From positions 372,001 to 436,000 of the forward strand of contig MU004190.1 of assembly GCA_010093605.1 (NCBI GenBank): a DNA stretch of 64,000 bases, in the 5' to 3' direction. Below the pieces are notes generated by a model. It was not told the origin of the DNA, did no database searches, and worked only from the letters and a program-made list of their open reading frames with translations. Numbering within the stretch: the stretch's first letter is position 1; the number at the start of each line of letters is the position of its first letter. Positions 14,426 to 38,774 of this stretch are shown in pieces. Origin of the DNA: Lophium mytilinum (Eukaryota). Made by a program: the position numbers and the translations under genes.

Positions 14426-16314
14426 TCTATATATATAATAACCTCTAGCCTTAATTACTACTAAGAGAATACTAAGAAATAATATAATAGCTACCTACTA
14501 GAAAAGTATATAGCCTTTTAAGAGATTAAGCTACTATTATTAAAGCCTTTATTAATAAAATACGCGCTAAAGGCTTTATCTATTCTAGTTTATTATTATA
14601 CGCTGCCCCTATACTAGTAGTTAAGAAACTAGAAGAAGAACTCTATATTTATATAGACTATTATAGTCTTAATAAAATTAGTATTAAGAGCTATAATATA
14701 CCGCCGCTTATTAAAGATACCCTTATACTATTAGCTAAAGCTAGGTATTATACTAAGCTTAATATTATTAGCGTATTTAACGCCTTATATATTAAAGAAG
14801 ATAATAAATATAAAACCGCTTTTCTAACTTATTAGAGGCTATTTAAATTTATAGTCCTTCCCTTTAGCTTATATAACGCACCTAGTCTCTTTTAAGTATA
14901 TATTAATAATACTCTATAAGAGTACCTTAATAATTTCTATACTATATATATAGATAATATCTTAATATATAGTAATATACTAGAGAAATATAAGGCGCAT
15001 ATTTTTATAGTTATTACTAAACTCTATAATATAGGCCTATTCCTTAACATCTATAAATATAAATTTACTGTTAATAAAGTTAAATATCTTAGTATACTTA
15101 TTAGCGTTAATAGAGTCTAAATAGATCTAATAAAAGTCTAGATAGTACTAGACTAGCTAATGCTATAAAACCTTAAGAATATATAGGCGTTTCTTAGTTT
15201 CTATAATTTCTATTAATACTTTATAGCTAACTACTCCGCGTTTATAGCTCTACTAATAATACTAACCTTAGCTATATAAAAAGGCTTTAAATTTCTATAG
15301 TTAGATAATAGTAATAAGGTAAAGGCTTTTTATAATGTTAAGAAATATTTCTATATAGCCCTATAGCTTACACTATAGAACCTAGACTATAATACTTAGG
15401 TTAAGTCTAATTCTTTAGATTATACTATAGCTACTATACTATTATAAGTCTAGCCTAATAGAATACTTTACCTAGTTGCCTTTATATTATAATAGATAAT
15501 ACTATAATAGATTAATTACGCTATCTATAATAAAGAGCTTCTTACTATAGTACTTATATTTAAAGAATAGAAACTAGAGCTTACTAGGTAAGGCTAAGAC
15601 TATAATAGCCCGGTTAATATTATCTTAGATTATAAGAATCTCTAGACATTTATAACTTCTAAACAGCTTAACTAATAATAAGCCTAATAGGCTAAATTTT
15701 TTACTAAGTTTAACTTTAAGATTACCTATAAGCTAGGTAAGTAAAATAAAAAACCTAACTTACTAACTTAATAACTAGGTAATAAACTAGCCCTAGAAGA
15801 TAACTAATATAAATATTAAGAGTAAGTTATACTAAAACTAAGTAACTATAAACTAGAAATATACTATACTATTAAGCTTATATATATTCTTACTAATACG
15901 CTTAAATATACTTCTATTAAGCTAGTATAAATAATATATAACTTTAGTAAATTTAATTATCTAGAAAATAAAGGTATTTAGCTAGTAGTTATGCATATAC
16001 GCCCTCCGCCCGCTATCCTAGATAAGCTAAATAATTCTAGACTACGCGTTTATATATAAGGCCGCCCTAAGAAACTAATAGCCTTTTAAATAATAACTAC
16101 ACTAGATAAAATAAATAACTCTAGCCTAGCTTACCTATAAGGACAACCTAAGAAGAATAAAATACCTCTAGTAGATAAGTTATATAATTCTACTATTAAG
16201 AAACTACCTATAGATAATAAGCTAAATAATTTATCTAAAATAGTTCTTATAGGTAATTAAATTCTTTAAAGAATCTAAAAATACTTTAAAGGTAACCCTA
16301 TTATATAAGCTATT

Positions 16315-16324
16315 NNNNNNNNNN
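16315..16324. other. assembly gap (10 N)
   Basis: Run of 10 N inside element 3 pol. Confidence 1.
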
Positions 16325-18066
16325 CTAGGTAACTATAAAGTTATTAATAACCTTCTCTATATCTATAAGTAGCTCTATATTCTAGATATTAAATAACTAT
16401 ATACTTATATTATCTAATCTATATATAAACCTAAGCCTACTAGATATGCTAGAATAATATTAACCTATATATAACTCTATAAGTACTATTACTAGCTATA
16501 GATAATATCTTATATAGACTAGTATATTAGCGCCTATTTAGCTTATAAGAAATCTAAGTACTTCTAAGAAGGTAAATAGAGATTGCTTTACCTATTATCT
16601 ATTCTAGATTAGTATTAGTATTACATCTCTATTAACTTTATTACCCCTCTATCTATCTATAAGTAATAGGGCCGCAAGCTTAAATATATTATAGTTATTA
16701 TTAATTAATTCTCTAAAAAGAGAAAGTTTATAGCTATAGACTCTATAGAGGCTAAAGATATTACCTAGGTATTTATTAAATAGATATAGAGAGAAGAAGG
16801 ATATTTATACTCTATTATTTCTAATTAAGGCCCTTAATTTATCTTCTACTTCTAGAAGCGGCTATGCGCCTAAGTAGAAATAAAGCTAAAGCTATCTACC
16901 GCGTTCTACCTAGAAACTAATAGTTAAACGGAAATTACTAATATAGCTCTTAAGTAATACCTACGCGCGTATATTAATTATAAATAGGATAACTAGGCTA
17001 ACCTTCTCCCTATTACTAAGTTTAAAGCTAATTTAGATAAGATAACTACTAGTATCTCTCTATTTATAGCTATAAAAGAATATAACCTATACTCTAGTCT
17101 TAAACTAGCTAATAACTCTATTATTAAAGAACTATAGAAGCCCCTTAAAGAAAAGGCTAATATACTTATAGAGTAACTAAATAATCTTTACCTCTTTCTT
17201 TATAATAAGTTAATATAGGTTTAAGCTAGATAAGAAGAGTTTACTAATTAAAAATAGAAGCCGGCTATAGAGTTTAAAATTAGTAACTAAGTTATACTTA
17301 ATGCCTATAATATTAAGACCTAACGCCTAAATAAGTTACTTAACTATAAATAGCTTAGTCTATTTAAAGTTACTAGAGTTATTAATAACGCCGCCTATAA
17401 GCTATCTCTCCCGCGTACTATAAAGAAAGTATTTAATGCCTTTTATTTATAGCTACTTTATTATATTATATATAAGCCGCTAGAAGACTAGATCTAAAAA
17501 GAACCTAGACCTATTAAAATTAATAAAGAAGGCTATAAGTAATAGAATATTAATAAAATTATTAACTTGCGTATTAATAAGGCTATGCTTAACCTAGCTA
17601 TAAACTAAAAAGGCCTACTTTAGTATAAGATTCTTTATACTAGTTACTCTAAGTAGAATACTAATTCTTAATAGAAATTCTATACTAGTATTACTAACTA
17701 CTATAATATTATTATAGATTATTACTATATCTACCTAAAAGTAAAAGAACCCTATAAGTTCTTCTAGAAGCCTAAGCATTAGAAGCTGCTACTTACCCTA
17801 ATTATAATAACGCTCTATAGATAACGCCTATCCCCTATCTTACTAACTTAACTAGTACTAGCTAGCTAAGCTATTACTAATTTATATAAATTAGATAATA
17901 CTATACTATATAGACTATATAATAAAGCTTAGTAATATATATAAAATTAACTATATTACTAACCTTATATTTAAGGCTTAGTAAGTACCTACTATAACCT
18001 AGAAGAATAATAACTCTTTATATAACTATAAGACTAAAACTATAGTAAGTATATATACTAAAATAA

Positions 18067-21000
18067 AAAGGCTATATATATAGGGGACTAGTAATACTAT
18101 ACTAGGTTATTTCTCTATATATACCGTGCAATTCCTCCACGCACACCCCCCTCCCGTCTAATCTTCTAATTAGTCTAGAGGGCTCGGAATACTACTCCGG
18201 CGCTTTATAGTAAGGCTGTATAGCCTTCCTATTTTATTATATATTCTTACCGTTTTTAATAGACTATACTTAGCTGCGTGTAAGGCTATAGATAAGGCTA
18301 TAGATAAGGCTATATATATAGGCTATATATAAGGCTGTAGTTATAGTAAGGCTATATAGTATACCCGTTTTACTATATATACTTCTCGTTTCCTATAGTA
18401 TATATAGGCTATTATATTGCTATCTATATACCTATATACCTATAAGTATACTAAAATAGTTAAATTCTTACCTTATTACGGCCTTACTATATTAAACCTA
18501 GCCCCCCTATATTGCCCCTGCGCCCCTCTAGCTATTCTAATCTATTAACCCCTCTATATACTAATTATATAATGCTATCTAACGTTAGAGCTCCTTATAA
18601 GGAAGCAGCGGCTCCTTATAAGAAAGCAGCGCTGGCGCTGCTTAAGGCCGAGGAGCTAGCTAAGGCTAAGGAGCTGGCTAAGGCTAAGAATAAGCGCTAT
18701 TATAATGCTGCGCAGCCTCTCTCTATAGTACTACCTTCTTTCTAGGCGCCTTATTCTTTGCACTAGGTGGCCGGCTACGCTTCTTAGGTGCAGTAGGTGC
18801 AGTAGTAGGTGCAGTAGTAGGTGCGGGTATAGGTACGGGCGTAGGTGCGGGCGTAGGTATAGTAGTAGGGGGGGGCCTATATATTACTATATACTTAAAC
18901 TTAGACGGATTAGTAAGTAAATTATTAAATTCTATAATAGCTAGTATAGCCGTTAACTAAGAAGCACTATAAGTAATAGAACTAGGTAGATTTAGGCGCT
19001 AAGAGGCTAGTAAGTATTATAGAGCTATGCCTTATTATTCTTCCTATTTACCTCTATAAGCTATGCCTATAGTAATCTTAAATAAAGATAGTTCTCTCTA
19101 TATACTATTATATATATAGTGGCCCCTCTATACTATAGTAGGCCGGCCGCGCCGGCGCTTAATAATAGCAGGATTCTCTACTTAGCTAAAAGGTCTAAAA
19201 GGAATTACTAGTTATTGCATTTCTAGCTAAGTAAACTACTAATAGTAATCTATTTAATCTAGTTATATATAGTATACCGGATTAAGAGGATTAGCTAGCG
19301 CGCAATATAGAGGATTGTAAAGCTTATGCGCGCATAGCATGCTAAAGATAGAATAGAATATATGCGTGTAGTTAAGCGGGTTGTATTTATTTAATTTAGC
19401 CTTTTTTAATTGCTTCTTAAGTAGCTTTAAGCCCTGCGGCGTAACCACCTAGAATAGATTACGGAATTTAACCTCTTTAACCTTATAAGGAGTTCTGGCG
19501 TGCTATATTACCCTCTAGTTCTTATACCTAGAGCGGCTAGTAAGAATAAGGTTCTATATATTAAGGAGAATATTAAATAGATAGCTAGTTAACACCTAGA
19601 GGAAGCCCTTAAGCTAGCTATGCGCGCCCTTATTCCGCGATGTAACTCTATAAGAAATTAAGTTAGTATTATACACCTCTGCTACTTCTTTATTTCTTAG
19701 TTATTCTTTAAGCTATACTCTTATTCTCTTTAGTACTACTTATTTAGCACGTATATAGACCCCGTGCGAAGTTTAGGTATTAAATTTAGATATCTTAGTG
19801 TTAAGAAAAATTACTTATATAGTTCTAAAGTGCCGAGTTCTAGATATATAGTAAGTCGCCTATTTAAACCTACACGGCTACTATTCCTCTACTATATAGT
19901 CTATAAGGTTAGGCTACTCTTTATAGTTATTAAGTAGCTTCTTCTAAGCCTTATTAAACTGTGCTATGCTCTCCAGCTTTATTACAGCGGTCTAATAGGT
20001 AATGAAATTACTCTTTTTCTCCTACTATTTCTTCTTTTTAGCTGCCTGCTACTCTTCTATGTTATTCTCTATTAGCGCATTAGAATAGCCTATAGGGAAT
20101 ATTAGTTTCTTCTTATATATATTAACTAGCTTAGTATTAATATTCTTTTCTATATACTATATATAGAGGAGGCGCGCGACTCTAGGCTATTGCGCACGTA
20201 GTGCGTTTATTAGAGCTAGTTCCTTATCTATTAAGAAAACCCGTGGAGTAATAGAATAGCGCTTAAAAAGCTTAAAGAGCTATTATACCGCCTAGTTATA
20301 GTTAGCCTCCTTCTCTCTAGAAATAAAATAGTAGCTAATCTTATAGTTGTTGCTTGTGCAGGTAACGCCGGTAATATATAGAAAGGGTATACTAAATTAG
20401 TTTATTTTATAGGTGCAATCTATTAATATAATATTATAGTTTAATTAGAGGATCTTAATAGAATCTAGGTGCGTAAAGAAGAGGTAATTAATATAGTTCT
20501 GCGCATCCTTTATATAGCTGTATACGTACTTCTTCTCTTAGCTATTAGATAAAGGGAATGTAGATGTCTCCAGCGTATTAAGGAGCGCCTGGATAGGTAT
20601 AAGGCTACTAAGAAGCTTAGTTCTATACTTAGATTGCTTATTTTAAATATTATTAATGTTAATAGTAACTCTCTTTTTTAATAGCTTTGCGTACATTTTC
20701 TAAGGCCTAGAGCCACTTAATGCATCTATTTAAATAAGGCGATTTATTAATAATAAGCGCTTTCTATTACATGCGGCTGCCGTAGGTTTAAGTATAGAAG
20801 AATAATTATTATAAGCTTCTTCTACTATCTTCTATAGCTATACGCGCTTACTATTAACTCTAGAAGGCTGTAGAGTAAGTATACTGTTTATCTTATAGTC
20901 TACTTTATTAGTAGAGGTACTGCGTATATATATAGTAGACTCTATACTGCCCGCAAAGCAGCATTTAAACTAGATTTTTCTCTTCTCTTTCTACGCATTA

Positions 21001-21363
21001 GCTTTTAAGCGTAATTTTATAAGGCCGTAGCCCTGCGCCTTTACATGCTCCGTAAGCGCCTTAATAGCTTTCTCTAGGGTATTATATAGCCGTGCCGGGG
21101 GCGGTAGAAGGGCTATAGTAAGTATATTATAGAGGTAGAGGATAAGGGTGTAATTAATTATAGCCACGCCGCATTTAGTAAGAGCATTTAAAATTTATAA
21201 GTAACCTTAGCGAGCTAATTAGAGGCCTTAGAGCGACCCTCCGGGCCAATTAGAAGACTGGATGAGAAAGGGGGGGTAGAAGGGTGTGCGTGGAGAAATT
21301 GCACGGTGTGCGTGGAGGAATAACCTAGTATAGTATTACTAGTCCCCTATATATATAGCTTTC
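18067..21363 (-). mobile_element. Mutator-like DNA transposon (Hop-type) with long terminal inverted repeats, RIP-inactivated
   Basis: Left GCTATATATATAGGGGACTAGTAATACTATACTAGGTTATT... (18071 on) is the reverse complement of ...AATAACCTAGTATAGTATTACTAGTCCCCTATATATATAGC (to 21359). Minus-strand transposase relic from ~21117 (MALLPPPARL), DDE region ILMDCTYKTN..GMPFLHITGVT (~20430-20360), CxxH (~20160), SWIM-like CAHKL (~19330). No clear TSD. Confidence 0.92.
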
Positions 21364-22271
21364 TTTTAAAAGAGAGTAGTATTATAGCTATAATATAACC
21401 TTTATTATAATATATTTCTATTATAGGTAATAGTATTATATAGCTTTCTATTATATACTACTATTACTTAACCTTACTTAGCGCTAGCCTCGCCTACCTC
21501 TTAGCCGGCGCTCCGCGCCCTACTCTCTCTTCTTATAGCTACTTTATTATATACTTAATACTATCTAGTTTTCTATTATAATTCTATATTATACTATAAT
21601 AATTAAGGTATATATAAGTAGCTCTAGCTTTATAAACCTTAGATATTATACTACTATTCTATATAAATAGTAATTAACTACTAGAAGGGTAGATAATAGC
21701 TCTATTACTATATAAAAGATTAGTTTAATTAATAAAGATATTAGCGCTATACTTACCTTAGTAGTTAGATAATTAATTAGTATAACTATATAGGCGTAGT
21801 ACCTACTATAAGGGCTTTATTCTTCTATATAAGGTACCTAGTATAATATATATCTTAATTTCTTAAAGTAACTAGAATAATACTACTTAAGGTAATTACC
21901 TTAATTATAGCCCTTTATCTTAGAGAAAAAATAGAGCTCTAGTAGGCGCGCTATATAAAGAGAGCGCTTCTTAATAATAATACCTAGATAAGTATAGAAA
22001 ACTATACTAAGATATCTAAGTATCTATAGCGCCTTAAGGTAGTAAATTCTAGTACTATAACTAACCTCTATATTATTAATAACTAGTTCCACCGCGTCTT
22101 TATATATCTAGAGGAGAGTAGATAGTTTCTCTAGTATAGTAGCCTACTATAGATTAGCCTTAATAGTACTTATTAGCGTAATAGCTTTAAAGGTATTATT
22201 TTAATTACTATTAGTTAAGATATAAATAATAGGCTCTATTTTTTAGCTTAAGTAGTTATAGAGAGTAAGAG

Positions 22272-22456
22272 TATTAAGAAGGTAGAGTAAAAGGTATTCT
22301 ATTAGGCTAGAGCTACGGCGCCGTCTTAAAAATAGTAATAACTAAGGCCTATACTTATATAGGCTATATATATATACTATATAGTATATACTATTCTCTA
22401 TAAGCTTATATAAATATCCTCTAATATAAACGCCCGTAATAGCTGCAACTATAATA
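22272..22456 (-). repeat. 3' LTR of element 4
   Basis: Gap-free match to 30163-30347; I count about 13 differences, all C/T or G/A transitions. Confidence 0.95.
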
Positions 22457-22620
22457 ACTGCCGCTAATAGAAAAGATATTATTATTCTTAATAACTTTAT
22501 CTAAGAATATACCTAATATCTAAGCGCTAGTATAGAGATAGATAATAGTAATATAGAGGCCTAGCTAGTATATTTATAACTATAAGTAATAAAGGCTTAA
22601 GTATAATAAGAAGGGAATAA

Positions 22621-22730
22621 AGCTATAGCGGCCGGTAAAGCTATAGAGGCTAGTAAAGCTATAGCAGCTAGTAAAGCTATAGCGGCCGGTAAAGCTATAG
22701 TAACTAGTAAAGTTATAGTAGCTAGTAAAG
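22621..22730. repeat. 18-bp tandem repeat (AGCTATAGCGGCCGGTAA-like) in element 4 3' UTR
   Basis: About six RIP-diverged copies. Confidence 0.8.
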
Positions 22731-25700
22731 ACGTTATAGGTAACTATAATTAAATAATTAAGCTATAGTAATTAGCTTATAGGTAAGTAATTAAGCTATA
22801 GTAATTAGCTTATAGGTAAGTAGTATTATAGGTACTTATAATAGTAATAAAGGGCTTATAAGTAATAGAGAGCTTTAAGTTACTCTTATTTATATCTATA
22901 GGTGCGCCTTATTATAAGCTGTAGTTAGGTTCTTATTAATATTCTTCTTACGCGTCTATTAATTCTTCTTAGGGCTATATTCTTTCTACTTAACTAGGTA
23001 CTCTATAAACTACTTCTTTACTCGCCCTATAAGACGCTAGTAATAGCCTAGAAGGCGCTTTACTAAGTAGAAGGCGCCTATACTATTATTATAGTTATTC
23101 TTAATAGTAGTAGGTTAAGCGGGTTCTTCTCTATTATAGGGGTCCTTAATATTAGAGGCTAGTTTAAGTTATTCTACTAAGATAATAGGGTATATCTTCT
23201 AAGTAAGTAGTATATTAACCTTATATATATTCTCTCTAACTCTATATTTAATTATTCTAGGCCCTACTTATTATTAACTAAACTTTCTATATAGTTCTAG
23301 AATTTTAAAGCCCTTATAGAGTTAAATATATATTAAGTTACTAGCGTTTAGCTATAGCGCGCTTCTAGATTTATTAAAGTAGAGCTTTATATAAGCCGCG
23401 GTAAACGCTATAGTATTAGTAGCCTCTTATTACGCGGTCTTGCGGGCGTTTAAAAAGCTTAACGCTTCTAGGTTAAGGGTATTAACGTTAGTAATAGGGT
23501 TATAGGTAACGGGGTTATTAGGCTTATAGGTAATAGGGTTATTAGGCTTATAGGTAATAGAGTTATAGGTAATAGGCTTATAGGCAACGGGCTTATAGAT
23601 AATAGAGAGTAATAGTATTAGTAGCCCCTTATTTAGATAGAAGCTATAGATAATCTTATTAGAAGAATAACCTATAGATTAGTTAGTAGAGTTATTTAAA
23701 GATTCTTAAAGAGTTATTAAGAAGGCGGGCTAGTTATTACTATCTTATAATAGGTAGTAATAAATTGCAATTTCTATAGTTTAATTAGTTTATTTAAATT
23801 AACTATTAGTACGCGGGTAGTACGCTGTACTTATAAGAATCTTAGTGCCTAGCTTCTTAAATATAGCCTTCTAAAAGTTAAAGATAAACTTTCTATCTTA
23901 GTCTATAATTATTGCTGCTAGAACGCCCTAATCTATAAGAGCGTTAAGAATAAGGGCTGCCTAGTCTATAGTATTATAGGTATTCTTACTAGAAATTATA
24001 GCTATACGCTTTAAAAACTTACTTATAACTATTATAAAGAAGTTAAACTCTATAGCGCTATCTATTAGTAGGCTAATAATAAAGTCTATAGTAATAGTAT
24101 AAAATAGAATTAAAGGTATTTATATAGATATAAGCTCTCTATAGAGCTTATAATAGAGTATTATATTAACCTAGTAGGTTTTATAGTAGTTAATATACTA
24201 ATAGAGCCGCTATAATAGGTTTCTAATAAAGTAGGTAGCCTAGACGCGTTTATAGCTATAATAGAAGCCTATATAGAAGTAGATATTATAGTACTCTATA
24301 AATATATCGCCCTCTAGACTCTTAAGTATATATAGCCTAAGCTAACTATCTAGGGGGTTATTATAATAGAGTAGATCTCTAAGAAGCCTAAAAGAAATTC
24401 TAGATATAGACTCTATATCTATAAAAAGTATTATAATACCGGCCTAGTACTTATCTATTATATACGCCTTCTCTAATTACTAGTAAAAGTTATTAGTAAG
24501 CTTAATAGTAGTAGTATTATATATATAGAGGGCGCTAGTATTAGCCTAGCTATTATAAGTATTAGGGCTAGTAAGGGCGTTGGGGGTAATAAAGGCGTTA
24601 GGGGTAGTAAGAAAGAATAATAAGTTATCTAGGGTGTTTAACGTTAGGTCTCTAGGGTATACTATTATTAAGGGTAACTATAATAGCGCGTCCGGGACTA
24701 GGTACTATTTTCTAGGCCTATATTAAATATTAAGGCGGAACTATAAAAGATATTATAATACTTATATTAGGCGTATATTTAGCTTATTAACTACTAAAGA
24801 TATTAAGGCGGTTACTTAAGTAATTCTAAGAGTAGTAGCGTAGTCTATAATAATAACTATTAAAAACTTAGAGGCCTCTACTATATATTATATATATTAA
24901 ATAGTCTATACTAGGTAAGCTACTTTAAGCTTAGTAGGCTAGTAATTACGCTCTACTACTAATAAGAGCTTACTAAGGAATAGTATAGGCTAGATCTTAC
25001 TTTACTTAATATTATTAAGACTTTCTAGGTTGCCTATAATATAGTAGACTATAACGCTATAGCTATAAGCTTTAGACGCATTAATATTAGCGTATAGACG
25101 CCGGGAAATATTAAAGTAGACTAAAATTTTCTTTTTAGTAAACGCCTATTATAGGGCTTTATATAAGTTTTAAAGCTTTATATAATTATCTACCTATATA
25201 GTCTAGATATAATAGGCGCATACCTAGCCTATAATAGGCGTAGACTTAAGTAGCTAAGTCTTTTTAAGCTAAAGAGCCTTAGAGATTTAGGTGTAGTATA
25301 TAATATACTATTAAAGCTAGCTAGTAAGGCCTAGGTAGTACTTAAGGTCTCTTAGGTTAGCTAGAAATTAGAGGTTATAAATAGTAGTAAGCTTCTCTAT
25401 AGTTATAGAAAGCCTAAATATATTAACTTTCTACCCTAGTAGTATAAGAGAGAAGTACCTAATATATAACTTAGAGCCCTTAAGTATAATATTAAGCGCT
25501 ATTAGGGCTTTAAATAAGGCGCTTAGGTAAGAAATATAGTTATCTAAGAACTTACTATAGATAATAATATTATTAATATAGGCCTTATAAAAGCTTTAAA
25601 GGCTATAGGTTTATATAAGCCTATTAATCTATTACTATATATAGCTAGGGGAGTTATAGTAGCCTATAATAGTAATATTAAAGTATTTCTAGCTATAGTG

Positions 25701-28700
25701 TAATACTACTATAAATTTTAGATAGTCTTAAACGCGGACTAGCTACTAGTAGAAGAAGAACGCTATATTAAGTATAGAGATATATAGATAGCCTACTATA
25801 GTACCTATAAGTTCTTCTTATAGTAGTAAGGGGTATATATTCTTCTATATAGCTTTATTAAGGCCTTTAATATTAATAACTACGCGGCCTTTATAGGTGG
25901 AAACGCCGCCTATTATTATAGTTCTCTAGATAATAAATACTAGAAAGCTAAATTTAGAGCTGTTAGACTATTCTATATATTCTTACTTATATAGCTTATT
26001 AAATTTATTATTAATAAGGGCCCGTTTCTATAGTCTAAGAGGGTAAACGCGGTATATAAGCTTTACTCTAGAAGTATAAAGGTCTATAACTAAGGGAATT
26101 TATAGCTATTAATTCTTAGAAATATTAGCTAGCTTACCGTTATCTATAAAGACGGGCTTAAACTAATTAAGTAAGTTATTAAGTCTACTAGTAATAGCTG
26201 CGGACGTTGCATAGATAGTAATATTAAAGAAGCTAGCGTACTTATTATTAGGCTATAGAGTGGAAGGCGTTAAAGGCGTTAAAGGTATTAATAGTATTAA
26301 CGGCATTAAAGACGCCTTCTATAGAAGATTTACTAATATTAGCATTAGTATTAAGCTTATAGTAGATAGAGGCTTTATACTTAATAGACTTAAGTTTAAA
26401 GTTCTTAATATTACTTTTAAGAGGCTTATAGTTAAGGGCGCTATATATTTAACTAGCTCTATAAATATCTTAATCTACTCTATAGAGCTATTATAGGCGC
26501 TAAAGAAGAGAAAGCTATTATTAGGTCTCTATAATAGGGCTATCTAGATAGCTAGGCTATATTTCTTAGAGTCTACTAAGTAGGCTTCTTTCTTAGTATA
26601 GTCTATAAGTATACTAAGCCTAATATTATAGAGCACTATATAAAGGGCGTTTAATATATTCTAGATATAGATAAAAGCTATATTAGAGTCTATAATATAG
26701 GCGTAGGCGCCGCCCTTAGGCTCTAGAGTTATACTTAGAAAGCTTAGAGAGAATATATAGTTATAATCTACTAGAAGAGAATTAGATTTATATATAGTAA
26801 TAGAAACGCAGGCAACTAAGTTTACTAGAATAAGTATTATAGACTTTATCTTTAGTATTTATTAGACTTAAATATTACTATAAGTATATACTAAGATTAG
26901 GGCCTTAAGGTTTTTATAACTAGTAAGTTATAAATAGCGTATACTAAGGTCTAAAATTATACCCTCTAGATGCAGGACGTTAGTTCTAATAAAAAGGTTA
27001 GCGCGTAAGTAGTTAATAATATAGGCCTTAAATTAGATAACTATAACTACTATGCTTCCGCTGCTTAAATATTCTAGAATATATAAGGTAATAATATAAA
27101 ACTCTAATAATAGAACTAACTTATTACTAACGCTGTATACTATAATAGGCTCGTCTATTATCTAGATAAGTAGCTTATTAGGTTTAAGAGCGTTAATAAA
27201 ATTCCGGCTAATTAGTATTATAGTATTTCTAGAGTTGGGACTAATATTATAGAGGTTATAGATATTATTAGAGCTATAGATAATATTAATATTCTTACTA
27301 TTATAGACGGCTACTTTTATTATAGTATAGTAGTAGCTATAAAAGGCTAGCCCTATACTAATCTTATAGTTCCGGGTATTTAATATAACTAGCTTTACCC
27401 GTAGGCTTATAATTATCTAAGAGTTAATAATAGGGGCGTCTATAATAGGGGCGTCTATAAAAAGGGCGTTAGCGTTTTATTACGCGGAGCGTTTATAAAA
27501 TATTAGCTTATAGTCTCTATAAAGGTATTTATAGAGCTTAGTATTAAATATAAACTTAGCTTTATAGGTCTAATATTAGAACTACTATACTATAATAGGG
27601 GACGCGTTAATATTAATAAAGCCTAAGTTAATAATATTATAGGCGTTATTCTTATTATAGGCGTTATAATCTTTAGGGTAGCCGCTATAATTTTTATTCT
27701 AATAGCCTATCTAAGCTATAGTCTTATTAAGGCCTTCTTTTAACTCTTTAGAGCTATTTTATTATTTAACGTCCGTGTTATATATACTAACCTTAGGCTA
27801 CCTACTATACTAGTTAGGGCTAGTAAACTATCTTTAATTATTAAAGCTGCCTTATAGGGCGCCTTAATTATAAGAGGTAGAAGTATTATAGAAGCCTATT
27901 AAAGTATTACTACTTATTAACTAGAGAGGCTACTATAGGGCTAGAAGCTACTTTAGCGTAGAAGTCTACGCGGGGGCGCTTTCTTATAGAGGGCGCTAAT
28001 TATACTAGCTATACTATAGATAGCTATACTATAGGTTATATTAGCTAGGTAGGGCAGAGTTATTATTATAGTTATTATTATACTAGGGAGTATAAGTATT
28101 ACGGGTGTTAAAATAACTATAACTATAGCCGCCGTAATTAAAGCCACGCTAGAAGTTTAATAGCTAGAAAGTCTATTAGAAAGTATACTAACTATTATCT
28201 TTAAATATATTAGGGGGCTAAGATAATAATAAGTCTTCTAGATAGAGTCTAGAGAGCTAATACTACTACTTATACTTATTCTAGAGAGAATGTATAAATA
28301 ATAGTACTATTATAGTTACTATAGGCGCAGGTATATTACGCTAGAGTAATAGGGTAATTCTATTCTAAGTAAAGGTAAGCTAGTTAAGTGTGCTCTCTAG
28401 GTTAGAGGCCTATAATAGATGTATTATATTATAGATATAAAATAATATATTATACTAGCTTCTAGTATTATAGAGGGTATACTTAAATATAATAAGCTTA
28501 TTAAAAGTATTACTAAGAGGCGGCTTAAATTAGTTAACTAATATCTTATACTAGTTATTAATAGTACTATATTAGAGGCTAATCTTCTCTACTTTAAAGA
28601 GTCCTAAGGTATACTATTTAAGGGTGTCTTCTTATAAGGTCTAAGGTAGCTTACTCTTAATAATATTTTTGCCGCGTAATATAACATAGTTTTAAACGCA

Positions 28701-30162
28701 GTTAATAAAGATAAATATATTATAGATATATATATTAGCTTCTATATAAATAATATCTTTAAGGCTAAAAAAGGCCTTAAGGTTAGGCTAGAAGAATCTA
28801 ATCTTCTAGATATAAAAGCCTCTAGTATTACTATTACTATTACTATTACCTTCTTCTATACTATTAAGGCCGGGGGGTCTAGGTAGTTCTAGAGGACCGG
28901 GTAGTTTTAGGGCAGCTTATTAAGTATCTAGTAGTTATAAAAATAGATCGCGTATAGCTTATAGCTGCCTAGGGGTAAAATTATTTACTATATTATAGTT
29001 ATAGTTATAAAAGTTAGAGAGTAGATTTTATTATTTATTTCTAGTAATATACTCTATATAGATAGAGTTAGCCTAACTATATAAAGAGTCTATAATAGAA
29101 ACTTAATAATATTTAAGTTACTAGAAGAAGTTTCTAATATTAGCTTATAGGGTTTAAGCTAATATTAACTACTTAAAAGAGTATACTTATTCTAGAGACT
29201 ATTTAGCTACTAGAAACTAGGTAAGAAAGCTACTAGTAAGTACTAAGTTAAGAGAAGTACTCTAGAGCTACCTAGTGTTTACGCGCTTAAAGGCGTATAG
29301 TTAGTGCCTAAGGTTAATAATATTCTAGAGTAGGTTAAAGTAGTAGTACTATAGTAGCTAGGTATTACTACTAGAGAAGCTATATATAGATATAGAGTAA
29401 TAGGCGGCCTATTAAGCTTAATATAGGCGTTAGAGAAAAAGTTATTAATATTTAAGAGCTAGATAGTAATAACATCTATAACGGCTATAGAAGAGATAGC
29501 AGCTATAGAAGGTATTAACGGCCGTAAAAGAATTAACGGCCGTAAAAGGTATTAACGGCCGTAAAAGAATTAACGGCTATAAAAGGGACAATAGCCTATA
29601 AAAGATATACGCCCGATAAAAAGAAGATAAGAATATCTAGAGATAAGGATATCTTAAAATAAGAATGTCTAGAGATAAGAGAATAAAAAATAAAAGAGTT
29701 AAGAGATAGAAGTAGAGAATAGTCTTATTAATAATAAGCCTTCTATAAACTATAGAACACTTTTCTTAGAGTAATAGTACCTTCTACTTACTACTATAAC
29801 TATTTCCGCGCGGAGGTATATATAGTTAAGGCTATTATTAATAGCGTCTAGAGCTTCTACTAAGAGTTCTAGGTATTTATAAGTAGTAGATAGCTTATAG
29901 AAAGTCTTAGTAGTAAGAGATTAATAGAGCTTCTATAGAATTAATAATATTAGCGTACTAAAAAAGAGTGCAGATATATAAGGTTATAGAAGTAGAGTTA
30001 TAAAGCTTAATACTCTAATAATAGTAATATCTAGAGCTTTAGTAACCTATTATTTACAATCTATTATTTAAATAAGAGGGAGACTATAGTTCTAGTGCTC
30101 GCGATATATAAAGCTAGTAAGCTTATCTAGAAGCTCTAGTAGTACTATACTAAGCTACTATT

Positions 30163-30347
30163 TATTAAGAAGATAGAGTAAAGGGTATTCTATTAGGCTA
30201 GAGCTACGGCGCCGTCTTAAAAATAGTAATAACTAAGGCCTATACTTATATAGACTATATATATATACTATATAGTATATACTATCCTCTATAAGCTTAT
30301 ATAAACGTCCTTTAATACGGACGCCTGTAATAGCTATAACTATAATA
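30163..30347 (-). repeat. 5' LTR of element 4
   Basis: Direct repeat of 22272-22456, followed by TSD AAGAG. Confidence 0.95.
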
Positions 30348-33222
30348 AAGAGTATAGATATATAGATATAGTTTATAAAGCTAATAATAAAGGCTCTATC
30401 TATATTAAATAAGGCGTTATTTATACTAACTATCTACTTATAAGTTTAATTTTTATTATTTATTAATAATTTTTAAGTAGATATTTATGCGTTTATTTAT
30501 AGCAGGGATATTAAGTTAAAACGCGTTAATTTTAGTAAAAAATTGCGTAGTTTATATATAAAGTCCTATTATAATAAATATATAAATATAAATAAAAATT
30601 ATAATAGCCTTCTTTTAATTTCTATACCTCTCTTTATAATAGTATCTATACCTCTTAATTTCCTTCTATATACTTTATAACGCTGTAGTTAATTTCTACG
30701 CTAAATTTTATAGTTTCTATAACTATACTATTCTTATTAATAGATTCTTTAAATATCTATCTACTTATACTATTTTTTTTATAGAGATTATAATAAAGGC
30801 CTCTAATATACTATTAATAGCTAGATTCTTATTAAGCACGTAGTATACTACTACTAGTATCTAGCTAAGAATATTAAAAAGCGCTTTAAAGTATTTACTA
30901 GCTATTAATTCTATTTTCTTACCTATACTATAGATAATATTATAATTAAGTATACTATATAGAGAATAGAGTTCTTAGTAGATAGCTTTAGTATAAGAAC
31001 CTATCTATATATATTAGATTTATAGAAATAGCTAGTAAGAGATACTAAGGCGTATAGGTTTAGAGTAATTACTAGCAGTGTTAATAAGTTCTTTAATAGT
31101 ATTATTTAAGAGTAGAAAGAGTAGTCTACTCTCTCTCTTTTTAGCTATTTATAGCACCTTATAATTAAATAGCGCGCCGCGTACTAGCTTAAGGCTAGTA
31201 AGTTAATAGAGGTATAGAGGCAGCTATTTAACTATAATTATCTAGAATAGCTTATACTCTATATATATTATAATTCTTAGTACTTTCTTATAGTAATTTT
31301 TAATAGCTTTTAGAGCCTAGAGCTTCTATATAAGAATTAAAAGCTAGCTTATATATATATTATTTAAATAAATATACTTACTAATACTAATACTCTTATA
31401 GCCTGCGCTTATATAGGCTACTACTACTCTAATAAAGTATATATTATGCACCTTAATAAGTACTACTATATCTATAGTAACTTCTAGAACTATTAGTTTT
31501 CTTATAAATATACTATAGCTATTATTATAAGGCTAGGCTTAGTAAGTATTTTCTATATAGATTTCTATTAACTTTATAAGTAGTAGAAGAGCTATAGGCC
31601 TTTTAAGAATAATAGGCTACTATATAACTATTATAGAGGCTCTAGCTATATATAGCCTATAAGAATTAATAATATTTTTCTATCTAATAACTACCTAGCG
31701 CCTATATATAAGGTAATCTATAGAGTATTATAAAAGAAGTAGAAATAAATAGGTAATTAACTATCTAATACTAGATTAGGCTAGTAGTATAGTATATATA
31801 GGTTTTCTAGTTATAATAAGGCTAATAAAAGAATATATAAAGGCTATCTAGAAATTTAAAATAAAAAATTATTAAAATTAGATAATTTTTAGTAGAGAAA
31901 TTAAGCTTTATATATTTCTATTTATTTAGATACTAATTATTAGAAATATAGGCCCTTTTAGCTAGTTTCTATACTATTTTCCCTTAGCTAGAGTATATAA
32001 AGCTAATTTTCTTTATTTTCTTAATTTTCTATAGTTTCTAAGGTGCAGCTAATTATATATAGGCCTTAATACTATATTAGTAGCCTATATATAGTTATAT
32101 AATACTTAGAAATACTATAGAAATATATAGGCGCGGAGCTTATACTTAAAAGGGCCTATTAGCTAGCTTTTAGGCCTTAATTAGTATAGGCTAAGTAATT
32201 AGGCATCTCTATAGTATTTATAAGTATTAAAGACTATATAGAGTATATTTACTAGTATTATAAACTATTATTATATCTTAAATACCTTAAATACTTTATA
32301 AGAATATTACCTCTATATTATTTAGTATTAGATATTATGCATAGATAGTATATAGTAAGTAGAAAATTTAGTTTATATAATAGAGTAATTTCTTATAAAG
32401 TATTTAAGAGTATTTAGATATAGTTTATAAGAATAAGTAGTTAGCCTTATATAAATTTTTTAGCCTTATTTAATACTATATATTAACTCTTAATATAATA
32501 CTAAATAGCCTACTATAACTATAAGGCGCTAGCCTATTTTCTACTCTATTTTCTCTATTTAATACTAAGTCTAGCTATACTATAACGCGCCTATAATTCT
32601 AAGAAAGTAAAGCCTATACTAAAAGGTATAGAGGCGTGCTAAGAAATACCTATAGAGAAATAAGGCTAATAGACTAGAGTAGTCTAGTTTTAAAAAAAAA
32701 AAATTTAACTTTAATGCTATATATTAACCCTTAATACTATAGCTAGCTAGATATAACTTCTAAAAGATAATAGAGAAAGAACTTATAATTAAAATATATT
32801 AAATACTAAGACTATAGCTAATAAATTTACCTTATAGTTAATATTTAAAAAAGGTATACCTCTTAAAAATAGACTAGTTTATACTAAATAGGCGCCTAAA
32901 TGTCCTTAGACGCTTTATAGAGGAATTTTAGGGCGGGAGGGAGGAGGGCTAGGAGGCTAGGGGCGGTAGGTAAGGGGGTGGTGGGGCCGTCCTTACTATA
33001 TTAAGTGTAGTGGTGTTGTGGTGGAACGCCTTAAAATGACTCGGAGAAGCGGCTGAGCACCTGAGATAACCAACGTGTAAACCCTGCTAGGCAACTCCAC
33101 TTATCCATCCTTCCTCCACTTCTCATCATCTCAACAACTCTGTGGCATTTGAAACTCCTCTGACTACGCTTGGTCCGCTACTCCAAAGGACCTCTAAATC
33201 CCGTCCTCTTCGACGTCCCGTA

Positions 33223-34677
33223 TCAGCCTGGACCATGCGAACCCCCTAGCCGTGTAAGCTTGTGTCATCCTTCTAATGCTTGAGATAGTCCTTACCTATA
33301 TTAGTCTTGCCAGAGAAGCTTTGGGAGCCGTAAAAAGCGGTAGCCCCTTCCTTGTTGTGTCCTTGATGGGTCACCGAACTGCCTGTCGATGTCGTTGCAA
33401 ACTACGTCCAAGTTTAGCCTGGTTGCGTCTCAAGGCTAATGATTTAGACTTGCCGTAGGACTTTCGGTGCGAGGCTTCACGGCGCTGTCCTTGACCCATT
33501 TCTTCAGTTCATGCAGAACTTTTTGGTAATTGTTGTCGTTCCGGCCCTCATACTTCGTCATACCGCTGTGGTCGGCAAGAATTCCAATGGTTGGGTATCT
33601 GTCTAAGATCGCCGACGTGTCGGGGACGATCTGGCTCTGCGTTAGACTGATATGATATGAATCTCGGTGAAGTCTTACTTTCTTATTTAGCAAGGCGTAT
33701 TTCTTCTCTTCGTAACAGCAGGCCACTTGGATGGAATCAGAGGTTTGCTGTTCACGGTAAGCCAAGTACAGCTCGAACCTTTTGCGAATGTCTTCCAGAT
33801 GTATTCCCTGCTCTTTGAGATCATCGAGGATCTTAGGGTTGCCGTCCTTGACAGTGCTGGCAAGATTTACGAGGATGCCAGCCATACCAGCTGAAGGCGC
33901 GCCACGATGCGGCGTTCCCATGAATAAGATGCCACACGTAGATGCAGATATCTGGTTGAAGCGCTGGGCGTCTTGGGAATGCATCAGGGCCTGGTCAAGT
34001 TCAGATGAATTCGTCATCCCTGGACGATTACCAACTTACCTCTTTACAACTGAGCCCACCGAGGCTATGACAGACGAACACGATGGGGCGCTTCTAGTCC
34101 ACGCTCAGAGCCTGAGACCAGAGAATGCTAGAAGGTGTGTAACTCACCAGTATTGTCCCATTTGGCGCAATCAGAAATCTTTCGAGGTCGGCACAAAGAC
34201 CCTTAGCATGTTGGTGACTGTTGTTACCCGAAACTGTCTGGAAGAAACCCTTTCCAAGGACGTCGGCATCATATCCCCAAGTCACTTGGGTATAGTCAGC
34301 TCCATGATCGTATCTTAAGGGCCATAGGCACGTACTGATACGTGCTTCCGGTATGTCTTTTGGGAGAATGTCCCTGGGCCAGAAGCACTCCTCGCCTGAA
34401 ACGCCAGGGCGATACGTCCATGTACTTCGGCGATTGCCAGTCAATCCATGCACGAAGACGATACTGTTAAAGACCCATTAGCTGCTTGGCCTCCTACAAC
34501 GAGTTCCACTCACTCTATGATCGAAGCTTCTTGAGGATCTGAAAGAATTTCCATACCGTAATCTCCAGAGCTTGCTGGCATCGAGGTTTGCTCTGCTGTG
34601 GTCCTATGAAGCAGTCAGAAATGATATAGACTACAAGAAGGGACGACCAAAGCCGTGTCGTACCGTTTATTGGCCAT
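33223..34677 (-). CDS. SesB-like alpha/beta-hydrolase (lipase/esterase-type effector) with C-terminal candidate amyloid signalling motif, ~346 aa
   Basis: Predicted exons 34677-34664, 34603-34514, 34463-34336, 34284-34148, 34093-34040, 33990-33679, 33630-33454, 33401-33296, 33245-33223 (1041 nt, frame consistent). Motifs DIVFVHGLTG, WPRDILP, ARIMTWGYDAD, IVFVCHSLGG (nucleophile Ser), GILFMGTPHRG, ADHSGMTKY. The last two exons depend on a GC-AG intron at 33453-33402. Confidence 0.88.
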
Positions 34678-35063
34678 ATTCGATGTCCTAAGAACCTGAT
34701 CAGACGGCGCTACGCTAAAGATCTGCCGGTTATTCATATGGCTCCTGATATCTAAAGATGTGCCGTTTTCTTGACATCACGCTCACCCAGTTGTGTGATA
34801 CAAGCGGGAGTTTGGTCTGTAGTTTTGTCGTTTCCCAGCTGATCCAGCTTTGCTTCCGACAATCGGCGATCAAACTGCAGGTATCCAGGGCTTGATGCCG
34901 GGACCCGTTGTTTCCTTCAGCTTGGCTGAGGTACCACATGGTCTAGCGACACATTTATACTGTTTCCGCCACTCCACCTAGTCGCCTCCTAACTTACAGC
35001 CCAAGTCCAGCGGATGTCTGTCTTCTATTACTTCTACCCCACTTCGTAGTACGCTTTCGAAAG
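34678..35063. promoter_or_regulatory. putative bidirectional promoter between hydrolase and NLR
   Basis: Only 386 bp separate the two divergent start codons; no specific sites identified. Confidence 0.55.
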
Positions 35064-38000
35064 ATGCCGGGCGACTATCATTTACACCATCAAGGAGACA
35101 ATACGGGGCAAAATGTGACCTTTTATGGGCAAAACACGATTCATGGTACCCCAAACTTCAACCTAAATGGTTCTAGCCGAGAGCGAGATCTTCAGGACCA
35201 ATGCCTACAAGATCTCTTGAGACATTCCATCGAAGAAGCGCCAGAGGCTGCCTTGGCTGGACTGGAGACTCGCAAAGGCAGTCGAACTCAAGGCACATGC
35301 AAATGGATCCTTGAAAACGGTTCATATACCACATGGAAGAACGATCCGGAGCCTGGTATCCTCTGGGTTTCAGGCTCGCCCGGGAGGGGAAAGACAATGT
35401 TGGCGATACACACCACCAAAGTCCTGCACAAGCAAGAAGAATATGTTCTATATTTCTTCTGCGATTCTAGCCGGGAAGTCACCGGCAACATGATCCTGCG
35501 ATCATTGATCTACCAAATGCTGGAGTTAGACACCTCCCTCTTCGAGCACATCCAGAAGATTTACAGGATTCGGAAGCAGGAACTCCTCTCAGACTCCGGA
35601 TTCGAGTTGCTGTGGAGTGTCTTCACAAGGATGGTGCAACGACCACGCTCGGCAGAATATCAGACTAAGACCTTAGCACCAGTGTATTGCATACTCGATG
35701 GTCTCGACGAGTGCAACGAAGCGAGTCTGGACTCATTCCTCAAAAACCTCACACGACTGTATCCCAACGAATACGACGAGGCCAGTTCGCCCTCTAGCTC
35801 TGACTCAAGTGACCCGCCACCGCCCACTCGTCTCAAAGTCATTGTGTCAAGCAGGGAGACAAAACCCGAGTGCATTGGCTCTTACCTCTCACGATTCCGT
35901 CGTATTAGGCTTGACCGAGACTGCAAAAACGGCATCAAAGAGGATGTCGCCCGCTACATCGAGGCAAACGTCAGAAGGATTGCAAATTCGAAGGAAAATC
36001 GGTGGCCAGATGAACTTCGTGAATTTGCAACGGACGAGCTTATTGAGAAGTCAGAGGGAAGATATCTGTGGTGTGCCTTTGTGCTGGACGAACTGGAGCA
36101 CAGAAAACACATCGAGGTGGAAAAGACAATCTCCGAATTCCCTCGTGGGCTTGAAAACGCATATGCCCGAATCTTACTTCGGATTGACCCTCAACATCAT
36201 GAACTTGTCTCGAAAATTCTTTGCTGGGTTCTTGGCACACGCCGAAGTCTATCTCTGAGAGAAATTGGGATGATGACTAACGTGTCACCTGCCCGAGGCC
36301 AAAGTGAAGAAGCAGCAGTGGTTGAACAATTGTCTTACTGTAATCATCTAGTGCAGGCCAGTCGCCGGCGCGTGTTCATCTGTCATCAGACGGTTAGGGA
36401 CTATCTACTTGGTAGGACCGACTGGGATTCACGCCCAACCGCATTTCACTTCGCTGCTGATGAGATCAATTCGACGATTTGGAAGACTTGCTGCAACGTG
36501 GTCGTTTCCGGACTTTCTGTACTAAGACGCTATCATGAAGAACGGCCACAAGACGAAAAGTTCTCCGGTGATAAGAGTAGATTTCTGTTCTTTTCCTACG
36601 CGATCAAGTTCTGGGCGACTCATGCCACTACTCAATCGATCGGAAGCGCCTCAGACAATGAAAATGGAGGCACGTTGCACAATGAAGACGGAAGTGTCTC
36701 GGAGGACGAAAAAAGAGGCTTTTATCTGTCTGCTCCATCACTCCCAAAAATGTGGGAGTTTCGATTCGACACATCAAGTAAGAAGAACCAAGGTCTAATG
36801 TCCCCCCCGAGAGCAGCTTCGGTCTCCAGGGCTATCCTCCGCGTTGCAGCCTTCTATGGAGTTTCCGGGCTTTTAACCCTAATGCTAAACTCGACTCTTT
36901 CTCTAGCGGACAAGACTGCCCTACTGAATCGCGGAGAGCGCAATTACGGCCGATCTCTACTCTCCATTGCGGCCATTAGAGGGCATTATGATGTTGTCAA
37001 GTTTTTGCTTGATGCAGGTGCTTTCATCGACTCGCTGGATCATTACAAGCATACGCCTCTTCATGCAGCATGTTACTCTGGCTATGAGAGGGTGGCTGAA
37101 CTACTTTTGGAACGCGGTGTTAGTTTGCAACCAGCTCTCAGTGGCGTCAACGCAATACATCCTGCCGTGTGCTCTGGTTCCCAGTCATTGGTCAGGCTAC
37201 TTTACTCGAGAGAGCCCGTGCTCAACGTGAGCGACAAGAGAGGCAATCATCCTCTTCACATTGCTGCGTCTCGTTGGGACCAGCCGATGATCGGGCTGCT
37301 GCTCGAGCTCGGTGCAGATCTTCCTGCTCGCAATGACTTGGGGCAAACACTGCTTCACAGCGCGATGTTGGGCTACGGCAGCCCTGGCGGCCCCCAAGTT
37401 ATCCGCGTTCTCGATCGTCCCGGATCCAGAGAACTTGAAGGGTTACTGCTAGGACTCAGCCCCAACCGGGTTCTCCCATGCTTAGTGGAATGGCTCATTG
37501 ACAACGGGTTGGACGTCAACGCAATGGATGACCATGGCAATAATCCACTACATTACGCTGCTGCTCTTGCCCGAGATGATGTAGTTTCAGTCCTGCTCCA
37601 AAGGAACGCTGATGTAGATGCGCTTAACAAGAACGGCGAGTCACCTCTCTGGAAAGCTGTTCAAGATAATCGTCTGGATATCATGAAGGATCAGGTTCAC
37701 CAGAGACACGAATACGTCCATGAGCACTCGGAGTTGGAGGATCTTGCGATAACCTCGTCCATCATGCTTAAGTACCAGGAACGGGCCGAAAAGACGGTTC
37801 CACTACTCCTTGAGAAAGATTGCCAGATTGGGGGTTGCGTTGACAGCGGAGACAACGCTTTTCATGTTGCGGTCCGACTCCGCGATATTGGAATGACAAA
37901 CATATTTGTCAACCACGATTCTGGCCTAATAAAGTCAATGAACAAAAGGGGCAGGACCCCTCTGCACCTCGCCGTCGCCTACGGCTGGATTTCGGGAACC

Positions 38001-38774
38001 CGAATCCTTCTCACTCACAGTGCGGAAAAAATGTTGCTCAACAATCGAGGAGAGACGCTCTTGCACGAAGCCGTCAAGCATACTAGCAAGCGCGCGATCC
38101 TTGATTCACTCTTCCAGAATGGGGCCATCGGGCAACTGCTTTCACGAGATAACTCCGGAAACCTCCCTTTGGATGTTGCCATCCACCATGGCCAAACTGA
38201 GGCTTTCGAGCTCCTGGCCGAAAAAATGAATCCAAGCGATCTCTGGTCAGCCAAGAGCGCTGATGATATCGTCCCAAGGCCAGCATCCGACGAAGATTTA
38301 CGCCTTCAGCTAAAAGGCAAAGCGGTCGCGGCACAGTGCCTATGGGATTGTGACATCGAAGACAGCGATGTCGATGGTGACGAGTCTAGTGTACAAAAGC
38401 CGCTGAACGTCGAACCCCAGTGTGAAGAGGAAACAAACAATGGTTCAGGTGTTACGGCCATGGATCCACTGGACATGGGCATTTCCTCCAGATCCGATGC
38501 AGGAGCTACAGTGGAGCAAGATAGCTCAGAAGAGAGTCATTCTAATGCCGAGTTGAATGAGTGGGATGATGAAAGCGAACCATCAGATCCGAATCATCAC
38601 CCTCGTAACCAGCTTTTTGAAGAAAAGGAAGAGCAGCAAGTCTCCGAAAGTCTTTATGATACCATGTTGGAGTTTAAGAAGGTCTTTTTATCGATTCGAG
38701 CAACGCGGCACTACAGCGCTGCTGCGAATCCTGATCTTGAGGATAGAGATTCTCATTGCACTTACTACGTCTAG
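35064..38774 (+). CDS. fungal NLR: short N/Q/G/H-rich N-terminal motif + NACHT + ankyrin repeats + acidic tail (1236 aa, intronless)
   Basis: GTCKWI motif, Walker A GSPGRGKT, Walker B YCILDGLDEC, EGRYLW, P.GL..AY.RIL, HQTVRDYL; many TPLH/NPLH ankyrin repeats; only ~35 aa precede the pre-NACHT helices. Confidence 0.95.
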   Translation: MPGDYHLHHQGDNTGQNVTFYGQNTIHGTPNFNLNGSSRERDLQDQCLQDLLRHSIEEAPEAALAGLETRKGSRTQGTCKWILENGSYTTWKNDPEPGILWVSGSPGRGKTMLAIHTTKVLHKQEEYVLYFFCDSSREVTGNMILRSLIYQMLELDTSLFEHIQKIYRIRKQELLSDSGFELLWSVFTRMVQRPRSAEYQTKTLAPVYCILDGLDECNEASLDSFLKNLTRLYPNEYDEASSPSSSDSSDPPPPTRLKVIVSSRETKPECIGSYLSRFRRIRLDRDCKNGIKEDVARYIEANVRRIANSKENRWPDELREFATDELIEKSEGRYLWCAFVLDELEHRKHIEVEKTISEFPRGLENAYARILLRIDPQHHELVSKILCWVLGTRRSLSLREIGMMTNVSPARGQSEEAAVVEQLSYCNHLVQASRRRVFICHQTVRDYLLGRTDWDSRPTAFHFAADEINSTIWKTCCNVVVSGLSVLRRYHEERPQDEKFSGDKSRFLFFSYAIKFWATHATTQSIGSASDNENGGTLHNEDGSVSEDEKRGFYLSAPSLPKMWEFRFDTSSKKNQGLMSPPRAASVSRAILRVAAFYGVSGLLTLMLNSTLSLADKTALLNRGERNYGRSLLSIAAIRGHYDVVKFLLDAGAFIDSLDHYKHTPLHAACYSGYERVAELLLERGVSLQPALSGVNAIHPAVCSGSQSLVRLLYSREPVLNVSDKRGNHPLHIAASRWDQPMIGLLLELGADLPARNDLGQTLLHSAMLGYGSPGGPQVIRVLDRPGSRELEGLLLGLSPNRVLPCLVEWLIDNGLDVNAMDDHGNNPLHYAAALARDDVVSVLLQRNADVDALNKNGESPLWKAVQDNRLDIMKDQVHQRHEYVHEHSELEDLAITSSIMLKYQERAEKTVPLLLEKDCQIGGCVDSGDNAFHVAVRLRDIGMTNIFVNHDSGLIKSMNKRGRTPLHLAVAYGWISGTRILLTHSAEKMLLNNRGETLLHEAVKHTSKRAILDSLFQNGAIGQLLSRDNSGNLPLDVAIHHGQTEAFELLAEKMNPSDLWSAKSADDIVPRPASDEDLRLQLKGKAVAAQCLWDCDIEDSDVDGDESSVQKPLNVEPQCEEETNNGSGVTAMDPLDMGISSRSDAGATVEQDSSEESHSNAELNEWDDESEPSDPNHHPRNQLFEEKEEQQVSESLYDTMLEFKKVFLSIRATRHYSAAANPDLEDRDSHCTYYV

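Follow-up and report, generated by a model that had tools for sequence, protein, structure and literature searches.

Fungal amyloid-signalling motifs have been grouped into five families (excerpts of PMC12261475) and are considered less varied than their bacterial counterparts (excerpts of PMC9815663). The published criterion is a motif at the N-terminus of an NLR and at the C-terminus of an effector, encoded by adjacent genes (excerpts of PMC5485727), and the mechanism considered here is modelled on NWD2/HET-S and on the sigma and PP clusters (excerpts of PMC5485727 and PMC3321046). The original sigma locus consists of SesB plus a NACHT-ankyrin protein (excerpts of PMC3321046); only indirect links between the SesB hydrolase and cell death are described (excerpts of PMC9815663). 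Among the catalogued motifs, PF07819_017 belongs to the sigma group and is listed with DUF676/PGAP1 effectors (excerpts of PMC9815663), and PF01048_015, or PUASM2, is known mainly with PNP_UDP effectors (excerpts of PMC9815663 and PMC12261475).

We analysed a window of 64,000 nucleotides, G000:C10:372001-436000, the whole stretch of Lophium mytilinum DNA considered, in which an NLR gene and a SesB-like hydrolase gene diverge from an intergenic region that would serve as their shared promoter (Table 1). The two very probably form a fungal amyloid-signalling pair of known kind: the motif lies at the NLR N-terminus and its match at the predicted C-terminus of the effector, in adjacent genes. The NLR lacks a folded effector domain and has the short motif instead, with the NACHT domain following from residue 77; no Pfam family was found in residues 1-60, and Walker A (35373) and Walker B (35694) are both intact. 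The motif begins at the first ATG of a stop-free frame of 1,275 codons, with A at -3, and 35064-35171 translates exactly into the 36-residue peptide quoted in the first-pass annotation, whose description of a signalling-amyloid composition also holds (N/Q/G/T/H/S make up 64% of the 36-mer, which has two charged residues). A contig of run X1 spans the NLR gene without any joint (one contig; the type of run is a guess). The public model of the NLR (P0001) is partial and begins downstream of the motif, so that protein-based surveys would miss it. At window position 38613 a run of T is one T longer in run X1, an error being possible in either sequence; with the extra T the protein would shorten from 1,236 to 1,185 aa, the acidic tail alone being affected.

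Table 1. Features of the NLR/hydrolase locus, in window coordinates.
Feature	Position	Strand	Description
AT-rich block with RIP signature	1..33000		ends ~300 nt downstream of the motif exon
SesB-like alpha/beta hydrolase gene	33223..34581	-	DUF676-like; HSLGG, GTPH and ADH motifs present
51-nt GT-AG segment absent from the run X1 contig	33254..33304	+	antisense to the hydrolase 3' end
Exon with C-terminal motif copy	33296..33401	-	core 33368-33300; single copy
Predicted 52-nt GC-AG intron of the hydrolase	33402..33453	-	removes the stop at 33438
Intergenic region of the divergent NLR and hydrolase genes	34582..35063		482 nt
NLR gene, single ORF	35064..38774	+	1,236 aa: motif, NACHT (NPHP3_N), ankyrin repeats, acidic tail
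NLR N-terminal amyloid-signalling-like motif	35064..35171	+	shared core 35088-35156, NLR residues 9-31
NACHT nucleotide-binding domain of the NLR	35292..35765	+	PF24883, residues 77-234, E 1.5e-31
Ankyrin repeats of the NLR	36921..37649	+	best Pfam stretches, spanning residues 620-862

The hydrolase model built here has 8 exons and 7 introns of 48-54 nt and encodes 334 aa; a partial public model (P0220, 301 aa) also includes the motif exon. Reading on to the motif requires removal of a further intron, since the hydrolase frame otherwise ends at the 33438 stop; nine GT/GC-AG options would join the motif exon to the hydrolase in frame. The intron required is a weak one, with a GC donor or a GTCCTA donor and a CTAAA branch. 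We prefer the 52-nt GC-AG intron because its length is closest to those of the other hydrolase introns; P0220 splices in the motif exon by a 79-nt GT-AG intron (33461-33383), which leaves the reading frame unchanged relative to the 52-nt option. As annotated at first pass, the effector has one copy of the motif, held by exon 33401-33296 (-).

In the single run X1 contig, from a run whose type we guessed, all 7 predicted sense introns of the hydrolase are retained, and the + strand joint at 33254-33304 suggests an antisense transcript over the hydrolase, of which the missing segment is likely an intron. This joint nearly coincides with the predicted last sense intron (33295-33246). The AT-rich block on this side of the locus has a GC content of 24-36% and a TpA/ApT ratio of 1.6-2.0, a strong RIP signature, and over 200 nt the indices of the motif exon are borderline (TpA/ApT 1.22, substrate index 1.0). 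Beyond the pair lie a DUF6594 gene (40292-41273, +) and a gene for a TauD-family dioxygenase (43285-44133, -), with no evident tie to it; tblastn of SesA and PNP_UDP against the window returned nothing at E 1, and no sesA gene was found there.

Against Pfam, P0220 scored 19.8 bits for DUF676 (cut-off 20.3) and matched Abhydrolase_6 weakly. Whether compared on features or on structure, its nearest Atlas clusters are DUF676 clusters; NACHT_sigma occurs on 15% of the 699 members of the first and 33% of the 76 members of the second, and the Ses_B (PP) cluster ranks 16. A SesB-like effector thus stands beside a STAND/NLR gene, as expected of sigma, where the effector is SesB or SesA.

The two copies share the ungapped pattern H-Q-G-x-N-x6-F-Y-G-x5-G-x2-N (35088-35156 / 33368-33300), with 9 identities over 23 residues. 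Composition-keeping shuffles equalled their ungapped BLOSUM62 score of 46 in 3 of 20,000 trials and the 9 identities in 53 of 20,000. Among 43 ASM-like segments each copy found its partner as top match (z 5.6 and 5.3, equalled by 0/1,000 and 1/1,000 shuffles), and the runners-up (z <= 3.6) were a mix of sigma-like, PP-like and other types. The 41 comparison segments were hand-picked from NLR relatives, 2 further proteins and hydrolase loci; the NLR-relative segments came from 148 new relatives, after rows with no Walker A match or fewer than 10 upstream residues had been dropped. Other cognate pairs are tighter, with z of ~10 (L022), ~9 (L046), ~15 (C22) and ~8 (C20). A complex prediction with 2+2 motif peptides scored 0.01 and is used neither for nor against the pairing.

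We compared both copies with the described classes. A Pfam scan of the two peptides at E 10 returned no family, and HET-s and HeLo models matched neither the NLR nor the hydrolase. In control scans NACHT_sigma matched P0174 at 29.8 bits, above cut-off, and Ses_B matched the PP-type P0191, in line with the published identity of Pfam Ses_B as the PP motif rather than sigma (excerpts of PMC8086366); the first-pass annotation had equated Ses_B with sigma, whose model is NACHT_sigma. The latter also missed five sigma-like N-termini (P0075, P0201, P0187, P0123 and P0194) among 21 proteins scanned, so the PF17106 test is insensitive and the failure of Pfam to detect our motif is weak evidence. Genome-wide, PF17106 matched nowhere, and PF17046 passed its cut-off at a PP pair on contig C20 and did not match the NLR/hydrolase locus.

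By regular expression, both copies lack sigma submotif A, GxGxQF(N), submotif B, GGTQN, and the three-fold A/B repeat, and neither copy matches the G-phi-Q-phi-G core of PP, RHIM and BASS3 (its absence had been noted at first pass), the PP pattern NxGxQxGxN, the PUASM pattern FxGxGxQxxGxGxF (nor is the effector PNP_UDP), or the HRAM core, a 21-residue repeat of which R/K13, G17-N18 and the hydrophobic pattern are missing by eye. The sigma A/B and PP consensus sequences came from excerpts of PMC3321046 and that of PUASM from excerpts of PMC9815663. We also scored the copies with seven home-made profiles, for groups labelled by eye and of uncalibrated sensitivity, the sigma profile containing no PF07819_017-type sequence. 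The numbers of 300 shuffles scoring at least as high as the NLR and effector copies were 114 and 174 for sigma, 26 and 14 for PP, 43 and 11 for HRAM-like, 86 and 39 for PUASM, 19 and 100 for GGxxF, 9 and 33 for L022, and 6 and 10 for the P0155 type, the best of the seven; none of these results survives 14 comparisons.

The catalogued instance that came closest on hand comparison is PF07819_017, from the Fusarium NLR cluster CVK97834 that includes EXK93331 (excerpts of PMC9815663 S2 Data). One gap, at the same place against either copy, suffices to align it, and 6 of the 9 invariant positions are shared (Q10, N13, F20, G22, G28 and N31), with BLOSUM62 sums of ~42 and ~35 by hand. None of 41 other segments reaches 6 of 9, and six of them reach 5. 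Because 10 of 780 shuffled ASM-like peptides also reach 6 of 9, the resemblance is suggestive and not significant alone; examining ~42 segments gives a roughly even chance of one such match, and the instance was picked post hoc. PP-type segments score about as highly against the NLR copy (L030 42, P0181 43; sigma instance ~42 by hand).

Our preferred, if tentative, reading is a two-gene NLR/SesB amyloid-signalling module whose motif is strongly diverged and locus-specific, with sigma as its most likely ancestry. Judged by its sequence, the motif is a clean fit to none of the printed class consensuses and most resembles an eroded sigma; most likely it keeps the PF07819_017 register Q..N......F.G.....G..N and has lost the GxGxQF and GGTQ submotifs. 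Sigma lineage would accord with the hydrolase's nearest Atlas clusters, which carry NACHT_sigma; against it would count the home-made sigma profile, which scores both copies at shuffle level. By analogy the motif probably works like sigma or PP, yet it fails membership of every class tested. The initial view that it lies outside the classic classes therefore stands for printed PP/RHIM, HRAM, PUASM, canonical sigma and Pfam, and has to be softened for the sigma cluster, where PF07819_017 is partly alike; the likeness to sigma, thought to be confined to the tail, extends across the whole motif. The accompanying caveat, that some catalogued motif might match, applies to this same 6 of 9 resemblance found by hand, which is not significant alone.

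Alternatively, the mechanism could be the same and the motif an independent, uncatalogued family that gives the locus its own signalling channel. We regard this as unlikely. The motif does fail every printed consensus and Pfam model tried, and H9, G11 and Y21, invariant in the pair, are missing from the PF07819_017 sigma instance; moreover, two other pairs in the same genome, the PP pair on C20 and a GGxxFxG pair on C22, match internally (z 8.3 and 15.4) and hardly across (z <= 3.4), and truncation of the public NLR model would have hidden the motif from protein-based surveys. The best home-made profile scores came from P0155 and P0085, which share the register G.N..G.....G, but this link fails after 14 comparisons, a single pair cannot define a family, and searches of the genome, proteins, NLR N-termini and 87 loci yielded no third instance.

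Those searches were weak for motifs of 23 residues. Each copy found itself alone in its own genome; a metagenome scan with the NLR N-terminus gave 79 pattern matches and 0 confirmed; a profile search of the protein collection gave 40 candidates of which one, the hydrolase model of the locus itself, carries the motif; and the NLR N-termini among the matches listed showed no third instance. A two-sequence motif HMM run over 15,623 segments of 87 loci (L003-L089: 7 paralog loci of the same genome and, from 535 metagenomic hydrolase loci, the best 80) gave a best E of 8.3, and the ESM Atlas, queried with the 60-aa N-terminus, a best score of 0.84, below recognition level. Among the matches listed in excerpts of PMC9815663 S2 Data there was no N-terminal HQG/FYG motif of comparable kind, and searches of the literature outside subscription journals listed no paper on the locus or motif and none for the species name with NLR. 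With no further copy turning up in these searches, a new class is not established: the HQGxN and FYG blocks, proposed at first pass as possibly class-defining, are shared by just the two sequences of this locus. Two candidate relatives were set aside, namely P0066, a SesA-NACHT-ankyrin linker similar by eye (z 2.7), and a family joining the P0155/P0085 register with the L022 pair, alike by eye and not significant after multiple comparisons. The N-termini of the P0155 cluster, P0085 and P0095, from Pleosporales NLRs (Parastagonospora, Alternaria), have in common F.GDNT.GSTLNQG, match no ASM Pfam model and are possibly an uncatalogued motif of their own.

Several other motif pairs were seen alongside. 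The C22 pair involves an own-genome SesB paralog (L007; L091:1-5566, G000:C22 ~389,660-394,570), whose tail, of pattern SGGGAVF.G...AGRD, matches a short ATG-started candidate exon of a head-to-head gene at L091:2672 (z ~15). The partner gene region continues with a stretch that has no Pfam match and is helical by eye, then a domain that resembles patatin below the Pfam cut-off (PF01734, E 7.5e-4), and neither NACHT nor NB-ARC was seen; neither C22 motif copy has a Pfam match, and a motif-linked pair with no NLR would be unusual. In metagenomic data a SesB-like hydrolase at L046:6800-7117 (+) stands head-to-head with an NB-ARC-like NLR on the upstream minus strand, and the two share GGS.FQGN.VG (z ~9), a motif related to that of C22 (z 5.6 to the C22 N-terminal copy), the effector tail having no Pfam match. 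L022 likewise joins a hydrolase and a head-to-head NB-ARC-like NLR by a common motif (831-983, -, and 2515-2616, +; z ~10), by eye of PF01048_015/PUASM2 type and on a SesB-like effector rather than PNP_UDP. The C20 locus (L094/L095, G000:C20:748,686-750,647) is a canonical PP pair, both sides above the PF17046 cut-off, with a C-terminal copy and, on the opposite strand, an N-terminal copy after Met. These further hydrolase-linked pairs suggest that SesB-associated motifs are under-catalogued.

It is improbable that the mechanism is as proposed and the motif belongs to another catalogued class, be it PF01048_015 (PUASM2), PP or NLR34. Hand comparison shows GxNV followed 17 residues later by FN(L/F)N in the NLR copy, as in CVK90632 (excerpts of the catalogue), and the L022 pair aligns to it ungapped with 9 identities (z 2.9, 14/1,000 shuffles), but the residues in common are not those retained in the effector copy, and L022 and PP segments match only 3-4 of the 9 invariant positions. 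The G.N.G head is PP-like, and among sequences outside the pair the PP-like P0181 scored best with the profile of the two copies (12.5 bits); both copies nevertheless lack the central glutamine of PP, and PF17046, which detects the C20 pair above cut-off, does not detect this one. Least probable is the absence of any working amyloid link, through chance low-complexity similarity or decay of a module that no longer splices in its motif exon: the stop at 33438 and the weak intron required to pass it, the adjoining RIP block, the low identity between copies and a sole RNA-like contig (run X1) spliced in antisense rather than sense are set against a pair score that shuffles rarely equalled, copies at exactly the termini expected, intact frames and catalytic or Walker motifs in both genes, and a 52-nt intron within the length range of the other six.

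Returning to the diverged, probably sigma-derived module, we propose a mechanism modelled on the HET-S/NWD2, PP and sigma systems. On sensing of a non-self cue by the ankyrin repeats, the NACHT domain would oligomerise and cluster the N-terminal peptides into a cross-beta seed; this seed would template the hydrolase tail, and templating would switch the hydrolase on or concentrate it, for a defence or cell-death response.

The type of system is well known, and the gain is thus incremental unless orthogonality or a family is demonstrated. A natural pair with only 9 of 23 residues alike, which Pfam does not detect, is a compact test of the minimal identity for amyloid templating and also probes where sigma specificity ends. 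It further illustrates how truncated gene models hide motifs, the NLR motif having been cut from the public model. That the motif founds an ascomycete family not yet described, with no cross-seeding with sigma, PP or HRAM, is doubtful; were it true, then together with the GGxxFxG pairs of L046 and of C22, where the partner gene is patatin-like rather than an NLR, it would show SesB-linked motifs to be far more diverse than the five catalogued fungal families, and one genome would hold at least three orthogonal amyloid channels.

Among the known systems, PUASM (NLR32) likewise has a G-rich, beta-arch-like peptide in a gene pair, but FxGxGxQxxGxGxF is missing here and the effector is not PNP_UDP. 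As in HET-s/HRAM1-5, an NLR N-terminal motif would template the product of the neighbouring gene; unlike them, the motif has no R/K13 and no hydrophobic 3/6/8/14/16 pattern ahead of G-N, and the effector has one repeat, not two as in HET-s, and no HeLo domain. With PF01048_015/PUASM2 (CVK90632, excerpts of the catalogue) the NLR copy shares, by hand, GxNV and FN(L/F)N at a 17-residue spacing, whereas the inner glycines are displaced and the effector copy lacks GxNV. PP (PNT1/HELLP/SBP; PF17046; RHIM-related) has in common with the locus a SesB-like lipase effector, a single motif copy close to the N-terminus and a G.N.G head, yet G-phi-Q-phi-G is missing here and z is <= 1.9 against the C20 PP pair. 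From canonical sigma (sesA/sesB/het-eN of Nectria haematococca; PF17106) the motif differs in lacking GxGxQF, GGTQ, the three-fold A/B repeat and a PF17106 match, and in lying at residues 9-31 of the NLR, where sigma motifs mostly lie at residues 50-99. With sigma the locus shares a NACHT-ankyrin NLR and a SesB hydrolase, one motif copy per protein and a G/N/Q/aromatic bias, and with PF07819_017 the register Q..N......F.G, then G..N, which by hand recurs in the pair at 6 of 9 positions with one gap.
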